A stretch of 64,000 bases of DNA from Gammaproteobacteria bacterium (GTDB lineage: Bacteria; Pseudomonadota; Gammaproteobacteria; GCA-001735895): contig JAOTXY010000009.1 of NCBI GenBank assembly GCA_029862125.1, positions 2,597 through 66,596 on the forward strand. The letters are read 5' to 3'. This document shows, piece after piece, positions 55,158 to 64,000 of the stretch (its first letter is position 1; each line of letters begins with the position of its first letter). The position numbers and the translations under genes are program-made. The notes beneath the pieces are model-generated. The model did no database searches. It was not told where the DNA came from and saw only the letters and a program-made list of their open reading frames with translations.

Positions 55158-56150
55158 ATGAAACCATTTAAAACAAATGCTCTGGCATCGATAAAATCAG
55201 CAGGCATCGGATCAGCTTGTCTCGCACTGTTCGGGGCGGGTCTTCTGGGTATTAGCCAGCCGGCACAATCCGATCTCCTGCTTTCCGGCCATGTTGCCTA
55301 CAATGCCGTCGATCGAGATTCAGAAGACGACATCGTGTTTCAGCGCAATGGATTTACCGAGAGCCGCTTTAGCCTGGTCTATGTAAAAGAACTTGAAGGT
55401 GGCAGGGCTATCGAAGTGGTAGAGGAAATCGGAATTGGCGAAGCTGAAGGCGCACTCGACTCCCGACGCCAGGAAGTCATCTACAAAGGTGATTTTGGCG
55501 GTTTCCGTTTCGGTCAGGGTAACGACGCGGGAGACGGCAATCTGAACGGTGATCTGTCGGGTACCACCGTGATCCAGCCGATGGCGTCAAATGCTGCTGC
55601 CCTGGACTACGACAGCGACAATTACAACGGCTTCGATCCAGGTCGGGGCGAGCGAATTCGCTATGATTCACCCAGGCTCGGCGATGGCGCGATCGTTTCT
55701 GCCCAACTTGGCGAAGATGATGAGATCGAAATAGGCCTGCGTTACAACACCGTAATTAAAGATGGCAAATTTCGTGTCGGTGCATTCATGACCAACACTA
55801 ACTCGGACATAGACGAGGATTCTTTCGGTATACTGGTCGCCTATGCGCTGGAAAACGGCTGGAACTTCGCCGTTTCTACATCGAGCAAGGATAACTCGGC
55901 AACCAATGGAGACGATGGTGATTTCGCCGCATTCAAGGTCGGCTATAAAACCGGTATGCATGCGGTTAGCTTCCTCTCGGGAACCTCTGAAAATCCCGGT
56001 AACCCGGTTGAAACAGACGCTGTCGGCATCGCCTATGTCTACCTGTGGGACACAGGCATAGAACTTTACGCGGCAGTGCATGAATTCGATTCCGACGACA
56101 ATGATGTCGATGAAGACTTCGTAGTATTCGGTACACGGGTGAAGTTCTGA
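55158..56150 (+). CDS. outer-membrane porin-like beta-barrel protein
   Basis: 330 aa. Signal peptide (GSACLALFGAGLLGISQPAQS), Gly/Asp-rich alternating pattern, C-terminal ...FGTRVKF ending in Phe. Confidence 0.6.
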   Translation: MKPFKTNALASIKSAGIGSACLALFGAGLLGISQPAQSDLLLSGHVAYNAVDRDSEDDIVFQRNGFTESRFSLVYVKELEGGRAIEVVEEIGIGEAEGALDSRRQEVIYKGDFGGFRFGQGNDAGDGNLNGDLSGTTVIQPMASNAAALDYDSDNYNGFDPGRGERIRYDSPRLGDGAIVSAQLGEDDEIEIGLRYNTVIKDGKFRVGAFMTNTNSDIDEDSFGILVAYALENGWNFAVSTSSKDNSATNGDDGDFAAFKVGYKTGMHAVSFLSGTSENPGNPVETDAVGIAYVYLWDTGIELYAAVHEFDSDDNDVDEDFVVFGTRVKF

Positions 56151-56258
56151 CACTAGTCCTTTTGGATATCCAGGGCTCAAAGCGAGCACCTCGCCTGAGT
56201 CGTGGCGTGTAATTTTTATGTTACTCTTGCGCGCTTCCCTGACGGTTTGTTATCACCA

Positions 56259-56609
56259 ATGAAAAATACGGCAACGTCAATAATCCTGTTGATTAGCTTA
56301 CTCGGTATCGTGTCCTGCGCTACCACATCAGCGCAGGATGAAGACTTCGCAATTTATGGTGAGGAGCCCGAAGGACCAGGTGTGTTCAGTGGCGAAAGCG
56401 GTGAAATTGTCTTGTCGCCAGGCGAAACGACTGAACAGAATGCAAAAGAAGGGGCGGCAACATCGTCCAGTATTTCGGCAAGCGAGGCGGAAGAATTTAA
56501 CGCATTCAAACGTTGGCTTAAATCGAAGCAGGCACAGGACGAGAGCTACCAGGAATTTCAGCACTGGTTGAAGTACGAAGAATACCGGCGCTTGCAGGAT
56601 CCCCTTTGA
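56259..56609 (+). CDS. hypothetical lipoprotein
   Basis: Start chosen at MKNTATSIILLISLLGIVSC (lipobox-like LGIVSC). Acidic mature region, C-terminal W/Y-rich helix. Confidence 0.4.
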   Translation: MKNTATSIILLISLLGIVSCATTSAQDEDFAIYGEEPEGPGVFSGESGEIVLSPGETTEQNAKEGAATSSSISASEAEEFNAFKRWLKSKQAQDESYQEFQHWLKYEEYRRLQDPL

Positions 56610-56668
56610 CGCCGAACTAGCCTGGCATCACCACATACTGTCTTTCTGGAAACGGAAATTCGAGCCCT

Positions 56669-57385
56669 ATGACAAACGAAATCCTGTTGGTACTGTTAGC
56701 ATTCGGCACCTCGACGCTGACCGCAATCACCGGTATTGGCGGTGGCATGATGCTGATTGCAATCATGCCGGGTTTTTTGCCAGCAGCGGCTATCGTGCCT
56801 GTTCACGGGATCGTACAGCTGTTTTCCAATTCGAGTCGTGCTTTTTTCGGCTTGCGATTTCTGCAATGGGAATTCGTACTCGCATTTATCTCGGGCTCGA
56901 TCATAGGCGGCCTCATCGCTGCGGGAATCACGCAGGAAATCAATCTTGAATATACACCATTAATTATTGCAGCCTACATCCTGTTCACAGTCTGGGGACC
57001 CAAACTGGAGTTTAAAAAACCGGTAAAGGGTGAATTTTTGCTCATCGGCGCAGTACAGACCGGATTGAGCATGATGGTTGGGGCAACCGGCCCATTGGGC
57101 CAGGCCGCATTATTGCGCCGGGGCCTGCAACGCGATGCACTGGTTGTTACCGCTGCATTGATGATGACTTTCACCCACCTGATAAAAATCATGCTGTTCG
57201 CCCTGCTGGGTTTTTCCTTTATCAGCTACTGGCAAATTATTATCGGCATGTCAGTTGCCGTAGTCGCCGGCGCCCTGCTCGGCACCCATATCCGCTATAA
57301 AATTCCAGAAGACGTGTTTCGCAAGGCACTTAAGTGGGCGCTGACGCTGTTGGCACTGCGCATGATCTATATCACGCTAGCCTGA
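56669..57385 (+). CDS. TSUP (TauE/SafE) family anion exporter
   Basis: 238 aa with about 7-8 TM helices and duplicated motifs (ITGIGGGMMLIAIMPGFL). Confidence 0.75.
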   Translation: MTNEILLVLLAFGTSTLTAITGIGGGMMLIAIMPGFLPAAAIVPVHGIVQLFSNSSRAFFGLRFLQWEFVLAFISGSIIGGLIAAGITQEINLEYTPLIIAAYILFTVWGPKLEFKKPVKGEFLLIGAVQTGLSMMVGATGPLGQAALLRRGLQRDALVVTAALMMTFTHLIKIMLFALLGFSFISYWQIIIGMSVAVVAGALLGTHIRYKIPEDVFRKALKWALTLLALRMIYITLA

Positions 57386-57559
57386 TATCTATCAGCGGAA
57401 CACGCGAAGCTCCTGCAGATTCCAAATAAAAGCGGACACTCGGTTATTAAGCTTCAGAGTCCGCTGACAATCCAAAACGGACATCGAATATATCCAGGCA
57501 GTTTGTGTCTGGCGTAAATATCCGGTACATAGGTGCGGGGTCGTTTTTGCTAAATCCAC

Positions 57560-58933
57560 TTATCGAATTACGATAAACAACGAACCACCGTTACGATCGA
57601 CTCGAAGCAGGACTGATGTCGTGCTCAGCTTCAATGCAGCTTTTAGCGATTTGATGTCGTATACCTTTCGTTTGTTGGCACCTACTATCACATCACCCTC
57701 ACGTAATCCGCTGTAGGCGGCAGCCGAATTGGGGGCTACCGCAACGACCAGCACCCCTTTGCCATCAGGATTGTTCTCGACGCGCAGCCCTTGTAGAAGC
57801 GGGATTAACTTTTCGACTTGCGCCTGTCGGGATTTAACCTCGCCGACCTTGACTGTCAGCTGCAATGAGTCGCCGTTTCGTAGTATTGTAAGTTGTACTT
57901 TGTCGCCAACTTCCTTGACACCGATTCTACTGCGCAGCTGGGCAGTCGATATGGTCGTTTTACCATCAGCCTCGATGATGATATCACCCAATTTGATTCC
58001 AGCACGGGCAGCAGGAGAGCCTTCAACGACATTGGTCACCAATACCCCGAACTGTCCTTTAGCCAGATCAAAGGCATCCCGAAGCTCGGGGGTTATGTCC
58101 TGGATTCCAACACCAATTTGCCCACGCCTGACTTCGCCATGCTCGATTATCTGTCGCATGCTTACCTTTGCCATGTTTATTGGAATCGCAAACCCAATAC
58201 CAATATTACCCCCCGCAGGCGAGATAATTGCGGTATTGATGCCCACCAGCTCACCCTTTAGATTGACGAGTGCACCCCCAGAGTTACCTGGGTTGATCGA
58301 TGCATCGGTTTGAATAAAATTTTCATATCCCTCGATGCCAAGACCGCTACGCCCGAGTGCACTAACAATGCCGGTGGTTACGGTCTGCCCCAATCCGAAT
58401 GGATTACCGATAGCGACGACGAAATCGCCGACTTCCAGCAGGCTCGAATCAGCAATCCTGGTCTCGGTTAAATCATCGGCATCAATTTCGAGTATCGCGA
58501 TGTCAAGTTCGGGGTCGGTTCCGACTATCTTGGCCTCATAATTCCGGCCGTCGACCAAAGATACGTGCACTTCATCAGCGTTCCTGACAACGTGATAATT
58601 GGTCATCACGATTCCATCACCCGCACTGACAATAACCCCGGAACCAGCACTCTGCTGGCGCTTGCGTGGCACTTGCTGCTCCGGTTGCGATTGATCTGGA
58701 ATATCAAAAAATTTGCGAAAAAAAGGATCATTCAATAATGGGTTGTAGCTGGACTCGCGTGTTGAGTAAGTCGAAATATTAACCACAGCAGGATTGACCT
58801 GCTTGAGCATCGGCGCTAACGAGGGGAAAGGCCTGCCCTGAGCGTCCGTGCCTGGAAGAACAGCCTGTGCCATCTGACAGGTCAGCATGAGCAGTAAAAA
58901 TAAAAATAACGGATGAGTTTGAATTTTTATCAT
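57560..58933 (-). CDS. periplasmic serine endoprotease DegP/DegQ/MucD family (trypsin domain + two PDZ domains)
   Basis: 457 aa. Signal peptide, catalytic triad regions (NYHVV..., DIAILEI, GNSGGALV), two C-terminal PDZ domains. Confidence 0.85.
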   Translation of the reverse strand: MIKIQTHPLFLFLLLMLTCQMAQAVLPGTDAQGRPFPSLAPMLKQVNPAVVNISTYSTRESSYNPLLNDPFFRKFFDIPDQSQPEQQVPRKRQQSAGSGVIVSAGDGIVMTNYHVVRNADEVHVSLVDGRNYEAKIVGTDPELDIAILEIDADDLTETRIADSSLLEVGDFVVAIGNPFGLGQTVTTGIVSALGRSGLGIEGYENFIQTDASINPGNSGGALVNLKGELVGINTAIISPAGGNIGIGFAIPINMAKVSMRQIIEHGEVRRGQIGVGIQDITPELRDAFDLAKGQFGVLVTNVVEGSPAARAGIKLGDIIIEADGKTTISTAQLRSRIGVKEVGDKVQLTILRNGDSLQLTVKVGEVKSRQAQVEKLIPLLQGLRVENNPDGKGVLVVAVAPNSAAAYSGLREGDVIVGANKRKVYDIKSLKAALKLSTTSVLLRVDRNGGSLFIVIR

Positions 58934-59006
58934 TACAATCTCCTATATTTTCAGCAACACCCAAGGGCTGACCAATACAAGGCCAGCCCTGTTCTTCAAT
59001 TATGAT

Positions 59007-59585
59007 CTACGAATTAATTGATATACGTTTTACCTCCTGATTCACGGTTTCACGACGGGGAATTTCAAGTCTCAATACGCCCTTATCAAGGTTAGCCTTG
59101 ATTTCATCAGCTATGGCGTCATCCGGCAGTGCCAGGGTCCGTTGAAATGATCCATAGCTGCGTTCGACACGATAATAATGCTTATCTTTATCTTCACTGC
59201 GCTCCTCCTTCTCCCCCTTAATGAGCAAAACATCATCCTTTAGCTCGAGCGACAGATCGGATTCAGTCAGGCCTGGTACATCGAGGCTGATCTCGTAACA
59301 GTTCGCATCACCCGATACATCAATTTGCGGTCGATAAAAATTTGACAGTCGTGCACCAGGTAAACCCATGGATTCCAGATTTGAAGCCAGCGATGGCATA
59401 CCGAACGACTTGAATGCATCGTCAAACCAGCGATCCATATTACGGTGCAGGCTCATCAGGGAACCTGGGCCCGCCTGTGGCAAGTTTTCAACTTCGCTGC
59501 GGCTAACCGGAATTTGGTTTCCCTTGCCAGCACCATTTTCCTCGTGTTTGAACCAGTTCCAGGGTTTAAGGTTTTCTAAGTTCAT
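59007..59585 (-). CDS. Hsp20/alpha-crystallin family small heat-shock protein
   Basis: 192 aa. Alpha-crystallin domain (DVSGDANCYEISLDVPGLTESDLSLELKDDVLLIKGEK...) and C-terminal I-x-I-like motif. Confidence 0.85.
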   Translation of the reverse strand: MNLENLKPWNWFKHEENGAGKGNQIPVSRSEVENLPQAGPGSLMSLHRNMDRWFDDAFKSFGMPSLASNLESMGLPGARLSNFYRPQIDVSGDANCYEISLDVPGLTESDLSLELKDDVLLIKGEKEERSEDKDKHYYRVERSYGSFQRTLALPDDAIADEIKANLDKGVLRLEIPRRETVNQEVKRISINS

Positions 59586-59652
59586 GTCAGTCTCCTGAAT
59601 AATTGCATATAAATTGGTGCCGCCTCGATAGAACGGCGTTTATCCTCATTTT

Positions 59653-59680
59653 ATTTAAGGTTAAGTAGGCAACTTTCAAG
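59653..59680 (-). promoter_or_regulatory. candidate sigma-32 (RpoH) heat-shock promoter for the hsp20 gene
   Basis: Minus strand reads CTTGAAA-(13 nt)-CCTTAAAT: perfect sigma-32 -35 consensus, partial -10 (CCCCATNT-like), about 65 nt upstream of the hsp20 ATG. Confidence 0.35.
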
Positions 59681-59776
59681 ACAGGGAAATTGACCCAGGT
59701 CAAATTCAAACCATATATCGATCAGTTCCCAAAAGTGGCCGCGTCATACGAGTAAAAATAGCTATTATCTTAATAG

Positions 59777-60304
59777 CTACTTGACGGCGATACAGGTGCA
59801 GGGTGCACGGTTTGCTACCTTGTGCGATACACTGCCAAGGAACAGACCTTTTAAATCGTTTAATCCACGTGAACCCATAATCACGCAGTCAATTTTTTCC
59901 TCATCGATACATTTCAGAATTCTATCGGCGGGATCACCAACTTCGAGACGGGCATCGACATTTTCAATGCCATTTCCCTCTGCAAGGCCTTTTGCTCCGT
60001 CAATGACATGGCGGCCTACCTCGATCAGTAACCGCGGTGATATCCCTGAATCCTGGAAGGCGGAATCCGTAGCCACGGTGATTCTATAGTCCATCGATCT
60101 CAAGCGTTCTATTTCGGTATTGACATGCGGTGCCAGTCCCTCAATTTCAGCAAACTGCTGCAGAGCGTCGATATTTTCAGAACGATGAGGTACGTGCAAT
60201 AGGACAAGCTCCGCATCGTATTTTTTAGCCATATCAATTGCCAGATCGAGTGCTTTGTGTGCATGATCTGAACCGTCGGTGGGACATAGTATCTTGTTAA
60301 ACAT
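59777..60304 (-). CDS. universal stress protein (UspA family)
   Basis: 175 aa. MFNKILCPTDGSDHAHKALDLAIDMAKKYDAELVLLHV ... C-terminal ATP-binding-type motif GSRGLNDLKGLFLGSVSHKV. Confidence 0.8.
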   Translation of the reverse strand: MFNKILCPTDGSDHAHKALDLAIDMAKKYDAELVLLHVPHRSENIDALQQFAEIEGLAPHVNTEIERLRSMDYRITVATDSAFQDSGISPRLLIEVGRHVIDGAKGLAEGNGIENVDARLEVGDPADRILKCIDEEKIDCVIMGSRGLNDLKGLFLGSVSHKVANRAPCTCIAVK

Positions 60305-60405
60305 GATAGGCCTCCGTAATATTCACCAAACCAAAAAAGTCACTTTACCCTGATAGCAATTTGGCATATTGACGCAGCTCAACGAGGATAAATTTATAAG
60401 CAAAT

Positions 60406-60495
60406 GTCCGCTTCTGGCTGAAGATTGCCGCTTGGCGATTACCTACAAGCGTCCGTTCTTGAGAGATGGCAGGCGTAGCGAGTGGTTTGATATTA
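60406..60495. repeat. cassette-associated ~90-bp repeat, copy A
   Basis: gtccgcttctggctgaag...gcgtccgtt...ggcaggcgtagcgagtgg aligns with copies B-D. Its right end overlaps the stop of the DUF4177-like ORF. A GTTGAGC (GTTRRRY) box lies at 60377-60383 on the minus strand. Confidence 0.55.
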
Positions 60496-60684
60496 GTCTA
60501 GTGGCCGAGTTATCTCCTCTGTTTCATCAATCTCTTTTGCGATGACGCTAGTATGGACATGCATACCATCGAATGCATCCGTGCGTCCGGCGCGAGACCA
60601 TCCATTTGATTCATAATAATTGATTTGCTCCTCAAGTTTGGTGATAGATAGGCACCGCAGTACTTTATATTCTATCCTGCTCAT
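60493..60684 (-). CDS. DUF4177-like small protein (63 aa), candidate cassette ORF
   Basis: IEYKVLRCL...LEEQINYYESNGWS resembles the DUF4177 pattern (EYK ... LNxxGxxGWEL). The C-terminal codons lie inside repeat copy A. Confidence 0.4.
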   Translation of the reverse strand: MSRIEYKVLRCLSITKLEEQINYYESNGWSRAGRTDAFDGMHVHTSVIAKEIDETEEITRPLD

Positions 60685-60919
60685 CTGTATCTTGGGTGAT
60701 TATTGATTTTGAAAACCTACCATCTTTGTCGGGTATGGACCTGATTGCGGCTCTTTGGTCACGAAAACATGATATTTTGTTCAGCTTAGAATTGTTGTGA
60801 ACAAGATCAAGCCCAGAGTCACCTATGACAAGTACCTTGTGAATATCTATGACCAGTAATCTAGGAGACTTTCGTAAGCCTCCCCATTATGGCAACAGTT
60901 CAAAACTAAAATTTTAGGC

Positions 60920-60990
60920 GTCTGCTTCTGGCCGTTCTCGGAAGCCTGAATAGCATTTTTCAGCGTCTCCTTTGGAGAAAACAGACGCTC
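60920..60990. repeat. cassette-associated repeat, copy B
   Basis: gtctgcttctggccg...gcctgaat...cagcgtctcctttggagaaaacagacgc aligns with copies C and D. Preceded by TTAGGC (60915-60920). A CGCTAAC box lies at 61150-61156. Confidence 0.55.
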
Positions 60991-61064
60991 AAACCCAAGT
61001 AATCAGCGGCGATTTACGACCCAATATAGATACTCAATCCCGTTCTCGTGGATACTGGTAATAG

Positions 61065-61082
61065 CTGACAGGTAGCTGTCAG
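61065..61082. repeat. perfect 7-bp stem hairpin (CTGACAG-gtag-CTGTCAG) inside the cassette-array spacer
   Basis: Read directly from the sequence. Followed at 61142-61180 by a direct repeat of aactcattcg flanking the CGCTAAC box. Confidence 0.4.
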
Positions 61083-61287
61083 TGCGCGTGAAACATCCAT
61101 TTGCTAGTTACAAATAGAACAGCCCCTACACTTGCAGCGGAAACTCATTCGCTAACATACTTGATGCGAACAACTCATTCGTTTCCTTTTAAATGAAAAT
61201 TTTACTCTTCGCTGTCTTTGTTGAAGTCTTAATTTCGCAAAAACTTATCTATACTTAATTCCTTAAGAGCGAGACCTTGAAATTCGT

Positions 61288-62001
61288 ATGAAGCGCGAGC
61301 TAAGTAACATTAAGGTCTCGATTGAATTAAGTCGAGACCAAATCATTGAGGGATACCTCAATGATGTGACGCCTACGAGTCAAGCGATTTCTGTTGCGAT
61401 ACTCCCAGCTAATCCAGAACTACCGATTCCAGGGACTAATTTAAACCTGCACTTTGAAATTCCTGGGGTAGATCCCCTGGTCCAAATACTCGCGGTGGTT
61501 AAAAAAGCGTGCAAAAAAAGTGGGAAATGTTTTCTCGATCTGGAGGTGATTGACTGGCATGAATTTCATCGCCACTTACCCTCGAATCTTTCCACCAACT
61601 TCAATCGACGGCGCCACTTTCGTGTCAACATGCCACGGCTAAATGAAACTGAAGTCTCGGTGCTGTCGATGCAGAGCGGGCGTTCGCTGAGCGCCACGAT
61701 GCTGGATATCTCTGTAAAAGGCAGCAAATTGTCCTTTGCTTTGGACGAGGCCCCGATTGTCGGCGAAACCCTTCGAATCAAGTTCTGCTTGCCAACGTCC
61801 GAATACCAACTCGAATTGTTGGCAACCGTAACCGGCCGATGGAAGATCAAGAACGCCAGGAATTGTGGCGTTGAATTTAAGGATAACTCACCGGCAGAAG
61901 AGAAACCTTTCTTAGCCCAGCAAAAATTGATATCTCAATACGTCATGGAACGTCAGCGGGAGTTGACCCGAATGGGTATTAAGACCGATTCTCGAGGGTA
62001 G
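61288..62001 (+). CDS. PilZ-domain protein (candidate c-di-GMP receptor), inverted candidate cassette ORF
   Basis: 237 aa. RRRHFRVNM (RxxxR) and DISVKGSKL (D/NxSxxG) motifs about 30 aa apart, as in PilZ domains. N-terminal about 100 aa unknown. Opposite strand to the other array ORFs. Confidence 0.55.
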   Translation: MKRELSNIKVSIELSRDQIIEGYLNDVTPTSQAISVAILPANPELPIPGTNLNLHFEIPGVDPLVQILAVVKKACKKSGKCFLDLEVIDWHEFHRHLPSNLSTNFNRRRHFRVNMPRLNETEVSVLSMQSGRSLSATMLDISVKGSKLSFALDEAPIVGETLRIKFCLPTSEYQLELLATVTGRWKIKNARNCGVEFKDNSPAEEKPFLAQQKLISQYVMERQRELTRMGIKTDSRG

Positions 62002-62252
62002 ATTCAGGTCGGTGAAATCTACAATTATACGATCGACGAATCCTACCTGATCTCAGGTTGTTAATAGACAGTTACACAGTTTTATCTACAGTCTCGCGAA
62101 ACTTGTCAGAATTTCGTAAAACGCTACATTTAGAAAAACCGGGGCAGGCTTAGTGAGCGACTTCCGTTTTCGATATGGACAATTGAGTATTTGATCGATG
62201 GAATGACCGCGACTTCAATCGATTCTCACTGTTAGTCTCCTGTTGATGTCGA

Positions 62253-62341
62253 GGGTCCGTAACTGGCCAAAGATTGCCTCCTGGCTCAGCCAGTTCAGGG
62301 TCTCCTTTGGAGGTAACAGACCTTCGTCATGGAATAATAGT
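62253..62341. repeat. cassette-associated repeat, copy D
   Basis: gggtccgtaactggccaaagattgcctcctg...cagggtctcctttggaggtaacagacc aligns with copies B and C. Preceded by GTTAGTC (62231-62237). GNAT ORF stop lies 24 bp to its right. Confidence 0.55.
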
Positions 62342-62364
62342 GCTCTGAAACTGCCCCAAATTCA

Positions 62365-62964
62365 TTACTCTACTGAACGAATCATCAGCAGGGCATTACC
62401 CTCGTAGTGAATCAACGGATGTGGGACTACTGGTGCTTGGTCCACCACGGTGTATCCCAGCATGTCGTACAGTTTTACAGCTCCCTTGTTCTGTTCAAAT
62501 GCTACCAATGACAAGGTTGTAAATTTGTTTTCCCCGGCTTGCTCGCTGGCTAAATACATTAATCGTGTCCCCAGCCCACGACCGCGATGTTGGGGGTATA
62601 ACGCGACGCCGCATACATACCAACTGTTTGGTTCTTCCAGATAAATGTAAGGTGCGAATACGTTTTCATCATCGGCAGCAGGACGATTTTTCGGATTTCT
62701 CGGTTCGGCCTCAGGCATGCCAAAGGCCAGCAACATACCGGCTACTTCACCATTTATTTCCAGGATAGTTGTATTGTTAAAAGAATAATCCCCATGGGGA
62801 TTTTGATAGGTCTGTTCACCAATGTCGAGTGGGTCACAATGCTCTATCTCGGCTTGTTCATGCCATTCAATTTCGGCAACTCCATCGGATGATATGGCAA
62901 TGAGCTTGGCAATGTCACGGGCATCGTCCCGGGTGGCGGTCCGGATTGCATATTCATGTGACAT
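62365..62964 (-). CDS. GNAT-family N-acetyltransferase, candidate cassette ORF
   Basis: 199 aa. Acetyl-CoA-binding motif region (VALYPQHRGRGLGTRLM) and overall GNAT length. Confidence 0.75.
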   Translation of the reverse strand: MSHEYAIRTATRDDARDIAKLIAISSDGVAEIEWHEQAEIEHCDPLDIGEQTYQNPHGDYSFNNTTILEINGEVAGMLLAFGMPEAEPRNPKNRPAADDENVFAPYIYLEEPNSWYVCGVALYPQHRGRGLGTRLMYLASEQAGENKFTTLSLVAFEQNKGAVKLYDMLGYTVVDQAPVVPHPLIHYEGNALLMIRSVE

Positions 62965-63009
62965 ATCAATTAACTTTGAAAAAAATATTGATTCAGATTA
63001 CCTATATTT

Positions 63010-63217
63010 CGCTAACACATGCGAGATACAGGATAACACCCCAGAGCATATAAAGAATTAACTCATGCTCCTTTGAATCGGTGAATATCGAATCACGACA
63101 TCTGCAAGGGTCCGCTTCTGGCCGAAGGTCGCCTCCTGAATTTCGCTTATGAGCGTCCGTTATCGGGAAGTTGGCAGCGCAGCGCGTGGCCTAGTCCGAC
63201 TGCATGGATTGTTAGGC
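63010..63217 (-). repeat. long (208-bp) attC-like element: CGCTAAC ... repeat core (63108-63205) ... GTTAGGC
   Basis: Terminal 7-mers are near-perfect inverted repeats matching the integron R''/R' consensus (RYYYAAC/GTTRRRY). Inner boxes catgcgag / ctgcatgg are complementary apart from one extra base. On the minus strand the upstream ORF's TGA stop lies 3 bp from GCCTAAC. Confidence 0.5.
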
Positions 63218-63220
63218 CTT

Positions 63221-63718
63221 TCACTCAATTATCTCTATTGATTCAAGGATGCTGCTTACGATGCTCTCACTTGTTCCCGTGAAAGGCCAATGTGAAACAT
63301 GAAGATCTATACAAATACCATCCTTTGCAAAATATGCATGGCCATTTGCCGTTTTGAAAGCTTGACCTTTATATTCTCCTCCAGATTGATGTGTGGCGTA
63401 GTATGCTTTAGTGTCATTTCGGGTTTTAATAGTGGATTTAACCATCACCGGGTTTGCTTGAGCTTTGGCCCAGAAAGCTTTGAAGCATTCCTCATTGTTA
63501 CTCGATGTCTCAATTTCACTGTTAACACTTATCGTAACTCCTGTTTCAACGCTAGATCCCAAGTATCGAATAATCCTATTTCTAGTTTTCATTTCAATAT
63601 TTGTAATCGGAGGTGTCTCTAGCTTCAATGTCCAGTTTTCATTTGGCATGGTAATGTAGGTTTCTTCCGCATTTGCGACGGGGGATAAAACCAACGCCAG
63701 TACAAATAGCAATCTCAT
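63221..63718 (-). CDS. secreted hypothetical protein, candidate cassette ORF
   Basis: 165 aa. Signal peptide MRLLFVLALVLSPVANA; no family recognised. Start preceded by GAGGAAAT 7 bp upstream and directly by a GTTAGGC box. Confidence 0.45.
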   Translation of the reverse strand: MRLLFVLALVLSPVANAEETYITMPNENWTLKLETPPITNIEMKTRNRIIRYLGSSVETGVTISVNSEIETSSNNEECFKAFWAKAQANPVMVKSTIKTRNDTKAYYATHQSGGEYKGQAFKTANGHAYFAKDGICIDLHVSHWPFTGTSESIVSSILESIEIIE

Positions 63719-63734
63719 GGGTATTTCCTCGTGG

Positions 63735-63795
63735 GCCTAACGCCTCGCATCAGCGGTTTGCCGTAGGCAGGTCCGACTGCATGCGCTTGTTATGT
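63735..63795 (-). repeat. 61-bp attC-like recombination site candidate
   Basis: Plus strand: GCCTAAC-gcctc-GCATCAG-(23 nt loop)-CTGCATGC-gctt-GTTATGT, i.e. R''-spacer-L''-loop-L'-spacer-R' with L''/L' complementary except for one extra base. The 3' 25 nt match copy C (gtccgactgcatg..GTTAgG). Confidence 0.55.
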
Positions 63796-63799
63796 GCAT

Positions 63800-64000
63800 T
63801 CAGCTGTTTGGTGAATTTGCACATTTTTCTTTCCCTTCTGAGAATGAGTGTTCCAGTAAGTTAATTTCAAGAACACTGTCTTCCTGTTCGACTCCAGACA
63901 AACAGAACTTGATCTGGTATCTGCCTGTCCACTCTGACCTTATATTTTCTGCAGTTATACCGCCATCATTTGAAATTTTTGTGGTAACGACATGATTTCG
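63800..64000 (-). CDS. 3' end of an ORF that starts beyond the window (candidate next cassette ORF)
   Basis: Minus-strand frame open from 64000 to the TGA at 63800-63802 (…EINLLEHSFSEGKEKCANSPNS*). The stop is 4 bp from the ACATAAC box of the attC-like element. No start codon within the window. Confidence 0.3.
   Translation of the reverse strand, partial: RNHVVTTKISNDGGITAENIRSEWTGRYQIKFCLSGVEQEDSVLEINLLEHSFSEGKEKCANSPNS

Follow-up and report, generated by a model that had tools for sequence, protein, structure and literature searches.

A probable attC site at a cassette junction beside a ~130-nt repeat in an uncultured sediment gammaproteobacterium

A 61-nt element (hereafter E) lies between two minus-strand genes close to the end of the window, that is, the whole 64-kb stretch of DNA analysed here. 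Our reading, to which we assign a probability of about 0.85, is that E is a genuine attC site which closes the 3′ end of a cassette encoding a 134-aa protein and forms its junction with a cassette encoding a 165-aa protein, within a minus-strand array (Table 1). Confidence in a present-day activity of E is lower than confidence in its identity. The initial annotation had already read the element as an attC site at a cassette junction, and this central reading is borne out by two covariance models, by covariation in a family of homologous sites and by the rule which governs cassette boundaries.

Table 1. Positions of the features of the array in the window
Feature	Position	Strand	Details
Element E, probable attC site, 61 nt	63735–63795	−	Matched full length by models R1 and R2; bulged hairpin
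R″ box of E, ACATAAC	63789–63795	−	RYYYAAC with A at the third position
L″ box of E, GCATGCAG	63777–63784	−	Unpaired G 63780; on the same arm T 63776 and A 63772 are also unpaired
L′ box of E, CTGATGC	63747–63753	−	Followed by the spacer GAGGC (63742–63746)
R′ box of E, GTTAGGC	63735–63741	−	Perfect GTTRRRY
134-aa ORF, 3′ part	63800–64000	−	Gene of the cassette which would end with E; full ORF at L001:973–1377
165-aa ORF	63221–63718	−	Gene of the next cassette; signal-peptide-like N-terminus
Composite site D	63010–63217	−	attC half, long repeat, 95 nt and R′-like box
R″-L″ half of an E-type attC in D	63217–63194	−	GCCTAACAATCCATGCAGTCGGAC, 24 nt
~120-nt long repeat in D	63215–63096	−	Junction GGCCA|G at 63119|63118
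GNAT acetyltransferase gene	62365–62964	−	Pfam
Long repeat C	62243–62373	−	Junction 62264|62263; nhmmer, breakpoints
Long repeat B	60908–61042	−	Junction 60929|60928; the related contig L001 diverges from the window exactly here
Long repeat A	60393–60525	−	Last site of the array, beside a universal stress protein gene (59777–60304)

Boxes, cassette boundaries and folding of the element

Read in the direction of the genes, E comprises ACATAAC - AAGC - GCATGCAG - TCGGACCTGCCTACGGCAAACCG - CTGATGC - GAGGC - GTTAGGC. On this minus strand, R′ is perfect and R″ carries one deviation, at position 3; the spacers between R and L boxes measure 4 and 5 nt. In the stem, GCAT-G-CAG-T-CGG-A pairs with CCG-CTG-ATGC. 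On the plus strand the same boxes appear as GCCTAAC (63735–63741), GCATCAG (63747–63753), CTGCATGC (63777–63784) and GTTATGT (63789–63795), and every motif which the initial annotation had listed for the 61-bp element is present. It had named the boxes on the plus strand, and this assignment has to be reversed. Both flanking genes of E are on the minus strand and E reads with them, as both covariance models agree: the GCCTAAC described as R″ is the bottom-strand form of R′, the true R″ being ACATAAC (63795–63789) and the true R′ GTTAGGC (63741–63735). An extra C noted in one L box does mark an unpaired base; it is the complement of the unpaired G at 63780 and belongs to the R″/L″ arm. Since E reads on the minus strand, the plus strand of the window is the bottom (recombinogenic) strand.

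The position of E relative to the ORFs was described correctly from the start. A TGA (63800–63802) ends the 134-aa ORF 4 nt before the R″ box, the ATG of the 165-aa ORF (63718) follows 16 nt after GTTAGGC, and a Shine–Dalgarno motif, GAGGAA, precedes this start. In integrons, each R′ contributes its last six bases to the cassette which follows, so that the R″ of a cassette is complementary to the R′ at its own start. This complementarity is present here. GTTATGT, located 19 nt upstream of the start of the 134-aa ORF (L001:947–953, beyond the window end), pairs at 7/7 positions with ACATAAC of E. Likewise, GTTAGGC of E (63741–63735) pairs at 7/7 positions with GCCTAAC (63217–63211), which lies 3 nt after the stop of the 165-aa ORF. 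The R″/R′ rule therefore holds for two consecutive cassettes at the window locus, and in related arrays an exact complement of R″ was found at the R′ of the previous short site in five cases. Such a pattern would not be expected if E were a terminator, a palindrome arisen by chance or some unrelated repeat.

On the minus strand, the array extends from outside the window to about position 60400. The 134-aa protein has a lipoprotein-like N-terminus and no Pfam match. Upstream of E, a 111-aa protein is also encoded. Contigs which share the 165-aa and GNAT proteins measure 4.9 kb or less, and a genome-contig search returned relatives at most 91% identical. Among the fetched contigs, there are no population variants with a junction at the G|TT of E.

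As single-stranded DNA, E forms a bulged hairpin on both strands (−11.7 and −12.2 kcal/mol). The hairpin anticipated by the initial annotation is thus present, but its energy is no better than that of shuffled sequences: it falls within the chance range (z −1.5 and −1.8), and 9–14 of 200 shuffles are equally stable. With z values as modest as these, the energy of the hairpin was dropped as evidence for attC identity. Such values would suit a hairpin formed by chance or an intergenic intrinsic terminator, a reading which we hold to be extremely improbable. E has no T-run and was not flagged in a terminator scan, the covariance models match it with E-values of about 1e-5 and 5e-18, and at least 16 homologues exist elsewhere; the family and model results described below already refute this explanation.

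The extrahelical bases of textbook attC sites are G and T. Against the attC reading, those of E, read on the bottom strand, are C, A and T at intervals of 4 nt, and E differs from mobile-integron attC sites in having three regularly spaced unpaired bases instead of two. The single deviation of R″ from RYYYAAC, the presence of only one canonical attC in the window and the failure to find an integron integrase in the window or the related loci also count against it.

Homologous sites and covariance models

Copies of both arms of E are abundant in metagenome contigs, i.e. in contigs carrying the same genes and in 119 further sediment contigs located via the neighbouring ~130-nt repeat. With up to 3 mismatches, the 5′ module AACAAGCGCATGCAG occurs 106 times, roughly 23 occurrences being expected by chance according to our own estimate; for the 3′ module CCGCTGATGCGAGGCGTTA, allowing up to 4 mismatches, we counted 22 occurrences where roughly 2 would be expected. 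Contig L078 harbors five tandem sites of 72–75 nt, each located directly after a small ORF. These sites read RYYYAAC-AAGC-GCATGCAG ... CCGCTGATGC-GAGGC-GTTRRRY and enclose a stem whose sequence is free, closed by the loop CGCTACGCG.

The family alignment comprises 16 sites from 11 other contigs, E being left out. All 16 members share three unpaired bases (columns 16, 20 and 24), which are confined to the 5′ arm. In the hairpin, 92.6% of the cells are paired and six pairs show changes on both sides; for the inner stem pairs, 2–11 sequences are altered on both sides. The covariation score was reached by none of 500 shuffles, and control alignments in which the sequences were slid were only 25–51% paired. 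The attC family of E displays a conserved hairpin with a variable terminal structure, in which the structure is kept and the sequence is free.

Two covariance models were built. The first (R1) derives from the 16 family sites without E. It matches E over its full length (63735–63795, minus strand) with 64.4 bits, inside the range of its training members (52.8–88 bits), and with an E-value of about 5e-18, which is rough since the calibration of both models was shortened; bit scores and the uniqueness of the match are unaffected by this. E is the sole R1 match in the 64-kb window, and with filters off R1 found no second canonical site over 59500–64000.

The second model (R2) was trained on six class 1 integron attC sites only (aadA2, aadB, aacA4, arr-3, blaVIM-2 and aac(6′)-29a), which were taken from four plasmids, trimmed in their loops and then aligned. 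It serves as a surrogate for the attC covariance model with which the initial annotation had proposed to score the element, and the outcome is favorable: R2 matches E at full length on the minus strand with 30.7 bits (E-value about 1e-5, equally rough). E is again the sole match in the window (128 kb counting both strands). R2 also recovers an attC site outside its training set (L159) and other sediment members of the family. As a whole, the architecture of E is far beyond chance. An Rfam scan of 56000–64000, with E-values up to 5, gave no match.

The attC sites of mobile integrons (aadA2, blaVIM-2) present the same elements as E in the same order: a 7-nt R″, 4–5 nt, an L″ with an unpaired base, a variable hairpin, L′, 5–6 nt and R′. 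In length, mobile-integron sites span 60–72 nt and E 61. The 5′ arm of E, CATGCAGTCGGACC, resembles GTTGCAGCCGACC of the VIM-2 attC, and the loop CGCTACGCG of the family of E is also present in the aadA2 attC. At the sequence level, blastn gave no match of E to plasmid-borne attC sites beyond marginal ones. One 27-nt match to the 5′ arm of E (92.6% identity) is located on a megaplasmid of Pseudoalteromonas shioyasakiensis (CP076682; L160:12001–12027), where it is flanked by a gene for an ATP-binding protein on one side and by two small hypothetical genes on the other. This match may represent a site of the same attC type in a cultured bacterium. Further differences from mobile-integron cassettes concern the context: no integrase lies near E, the array belongs to an uncultured gammaproteobacterium from sediment, and the genes encode secreted proteins of no known function instead of resistance.

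The long repeat and the composite sites

E is the single canonical site in an array dominated by a repeat of ~130 nt. Four copies of this long repeat (A to D) lie in the final 4 kb of the window, the rest of which contains none; a fifth copy is located just beyond the window end. An orthologue of repeat A lies upstream of the same universal stress protein gene in another contig (L013). The consensus, GAGTGTCTGCTTTGGGTCG...TTTGAGCGTCTGCTTTCTCCAAAGCAGACGCTCAAA...CGGCCAGAAACGGACGCTC, is an imperfect palindrome in which a 13-nt motif occurs four times, forming two inverted repeats, one nested in the other. In the fetched sediment contigs (L033–L151) we counted about 370 copies, up to ten per 15 kb; 98% of them face the same way in their contig, and their median spacing is 1137 nt. 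No Rfam family matched the long repeat, blastn of the consensus against plasmids gave no match, and no description of such a ~130-nt repeat was found in a literature search.

We also considered the long repeat as a folded site. This was rejected: the consensus reaches a z of −5.6, but individual copies fold poorly. An alignment of nine long-repeat sequences gave almost no consensus structure, and the outer inverted boxes showed no covariation, either within the site or with the previous site.

Many copies are fused to the R″-L″ half of an attC. Site D is an example of such a composite. The initial annotation had regarded E and the region 63010–63217 as short and long members of one attC family, sharing their last ~25 nt. 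The bounding boxes which it described are present (CGCTAAC at 63010–63016 and GTTAGGC at 63211–63217), and E does share the 13-mer GTCCGACTGCATG with 63194–63206. The sharing is limited to the R″-L″ module, and the family relationship was not upheld: D has no fold and is not recognized by the models (fold z −0.09 and +0.24; R1 7.4 bits, E-value 1.2; R2 no match). D was therefore rejected as a long attC, and only 63217–63194 is attC-like. Beyond the long repeat, D contains 95 nt with a small hairpin and then an R′-like GTTAGCG (63016–63010). Since the R″ of D, GCCTAAC, is exactly complementary to the R′ of E, the outer boundaries of D may be real cassette boundaries, the object between them being a composite and not a long attC.

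In nine cases, a GTTRRRY box which matches the R″ of the next site is located 63–156 nt downstream of a long repeat. A small AT-rich hairpin (TTAAGAGGCC...GGCCTCTTAA) usually stands before that box; GATAAT-like boxes precede it, and GCT and GTTAGGC follow. Loci with this arrangement include L040, L060, L138, L066, L139, L063 and L001:900–953. The AT-rich hairpin and GTTAGGC may together constitute a mini attC-like module, which neither model detects.

Several gene contexts accompany the repeats. The commonest protein family beside them is an 871-aa adenylate/guanylate-cyclase-like protein found at 19 loci (e.g. L140:1677–4289), an assignment which is based on the N-terminal sequence only; at ~870 aa, this protein is unusually big for a gene cassette. 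In the window, the array ends at a same-strand stress cluster (57560–60304) encoding a universal stress protein, Hsp20 and a DegP/HtrA-like protease. After repeat B, L001 carries a secreted, FKBP-type isomerase-like gene (judged from its translated start) which is absent from the window.

Units appear to be exchanged at the long repeats. The GNAT unit (63137–62255), bounded by repeats D and C, is 98.8% identical in five independent assemblies (L007, L009–L012), whose flanks are wholly different from those of the window, with junctions at GGCCA|. This is the only documented cassette exchange in the array of the window, and it used long repeats, not G|TT, which speaks against the attC reading of E. 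Further independent examples of exchange are provided by L043/L128/L067 and L105/L118. Comparison of near-identical sequences across the loci gave 38 internal breakpoints; 26 of them lie no more than 12 nt from GGCCA|K, representing about six independent events.

Genes for IS30-family transposases recur in the arrays (a full copy at L128:7049–8218; also L062, L065, L070, L059 and L138). The right end of these elements (...GTTGAAACCGCA) always abuts the long-repeat motif (G/A)CC(A/C)nnnnSAGACRCTC, which suggests target-specific insertion at or beside the exchange junction. A remnant of an IS30-family transposase is located at L001:2–139, about 1.2 kb beyond the window end. Candidates for the process which makes the junctions are site-specific recombination, recombination within the best-conserved 15 nt of the repeat, or activity of the transposase. 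It is conceivable, though we rate it as rather doubtful, that the ~130-nt repeat, often fused to an attC half, represents a second, undescribed type of cassette boundary which exchanges units at GGCCA|K and receives IS30-family insertions at or beside that point.

Integron class, related systems and significance

A tblastn search with IntI1 (the probe being 100% identical to annotated IntI1) found no integron integrase in the 64-kb window and 151 related loci (about 930 kb). This absence of intI covers the window and the fetched loci, not the genome, and the integrase side of the array of the window lies outside the window, on the side of the IS30-family transposase remnant. In three related loci where the array ends on the expected integrase side (L069, L036 and L128), no integrase was present. 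ORF clustering across the loci revealed no recurrent recombinase other than the IS30-family transposases. The search returned a single match, L081:1699–2577, which was rejected: it is a 292-aa Xer-like protein which scores 168 bits against the TIGR02249 cutoff of 265 and has an IS91 transposase as partner. This pair of a recombinase and an IS91-family transposase (L081:1699–3806) is divergent and lies about 130 nt from a long repeat. A 192-aa tyrosine-recombinase-like ORF (L048:3371–3949), also divergent, was seen once only; it lies upstream of an array, about 1.1 kb from the first repeat.

No intI gene (for a tyrosine recombinase with the IntI-specific insertion) beside an array, as in a complete integron, was found in the window or the 151 loci. 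A CALIN requires two or more attC sites which share a strand and lie within 4 kb, without an integrase (PMC4889954). Such clusters occur in related loci, with five sites in L078 and two each in L052, L068 and L092. Since the window contains only one canonical attC, its canonical sites do not form a CALIN. By the definitions of IntegronFinder, the window holds a lone attC, neither a complete integron nor a CALIN (PMC4889954), and E shares with CALIN and lone attC sites the lack of a neighbouring integron integrase (PMC4889954).

By analogy with the established integron mechanism, E as a genuine attC site would act as follows. Its bottom strand, the plus strand of the window, would fold when single-stranded. 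An integrase encoded elsewhere would bind to the R and L boxes, the choice of strand being set by the unpaired bases. Cleavage of GCCTAA|C between 63740 and 63741, which corresponds to the G|TT crossover on the minus strand, would then let the 134-aa cassette leave as a circle or re-insert.

Alternatively, E could be an attC by descent which is now a relic, shuffling being achieved via the ~130-nt repeats by homologous recombination or by the IS30-family transposase. We consider this unlikely, though deserving of real weight. It is consistent with the lack of an integrase in the window, in the related loci and at the visible array ends, with the fact that only one of the 5–6 sites in the array of the window is canonical, and with exchange junctions at GGCCA| in long repeats and IS30-family elements within the arrays. 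Nevertheless, every box of E is intact and its score is like those of the other family members, and if the relic were old, the 7/7 R′/R″ pairing on either side would have eroded. Moreover, an integrase could be encoded far upstream or elsewhere in the genome, the related contigs all being fragments.

Repetitive extragenic elements are known as specific targets of insertion sequences: IS1397 inserts into REP/BIME, and IS1111-attC elements into attC sites. Like REP/BIME, the long repeat is intergenic, has an imperfect palindrome as its consensus and has a fixed motif for IS insertion. Unlike REP/BIME, its copies share one orientation (98%) and follow one another at about 1.1 kb, as cassette sites do; they are frequently fused to the R″-L″ half of an attC and carry exchange junctions of gene units. 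E itself might similarly be a lineage-specific palindromic intergenic repeat which mimics attC and is unrelated to integrons, as the richness of this lineage in intergenic repeats and the failure to find an integrase would allow. We judge this very improbable, since E is recognized by R2, for which clinical integron attC sites were the sole training set. In addition, the order of the boxes, the strand-specific unpaired bases and the pairing of R″ with the upstream R′ are specific predictions for integron cassettes, and conserved ends with a variable stem are the attC pattern.

With E taken as an attC site, its family also invites comparison with chromosomal integrons. Vibrio cholerae repeats (VCR) are about 125 nt long. 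Like VCR, the sites of the family are more alike than attC sites in general and combine conserved arms with a variable stem. As in sedentary chromosomal integrons, they accompany small ORFs, most of them without a known function, in arrays which run in one direction. Unlike VCR, they are short (61–75 nt), are a minority among repeats which are not attC, and no integrase was identified with them.

E adds one more environmental attC family, and an uncultured coastal-sediment gammaproteobacterium carries integron-type cassettes for unknown secreted proteins. Canonical attC sites are a minority here, among composite sites built on an undescribed repeat which is invisible to standard integron finders. 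Because canonical sites are few and the composites go unseen, annotation of this lineage would yield single sites in place of its arrays or overlook the arrays altogether, and would underestimate their real size and dynamics. E itself is ordinary biology; the potentially new and unexplained part is the ~130-nt repeat which dominates the array. If the long repeat were a true recombination site, used by an integron integrase or by another enzyme, the lineage would possess a hybrid cassette system with two types of site.
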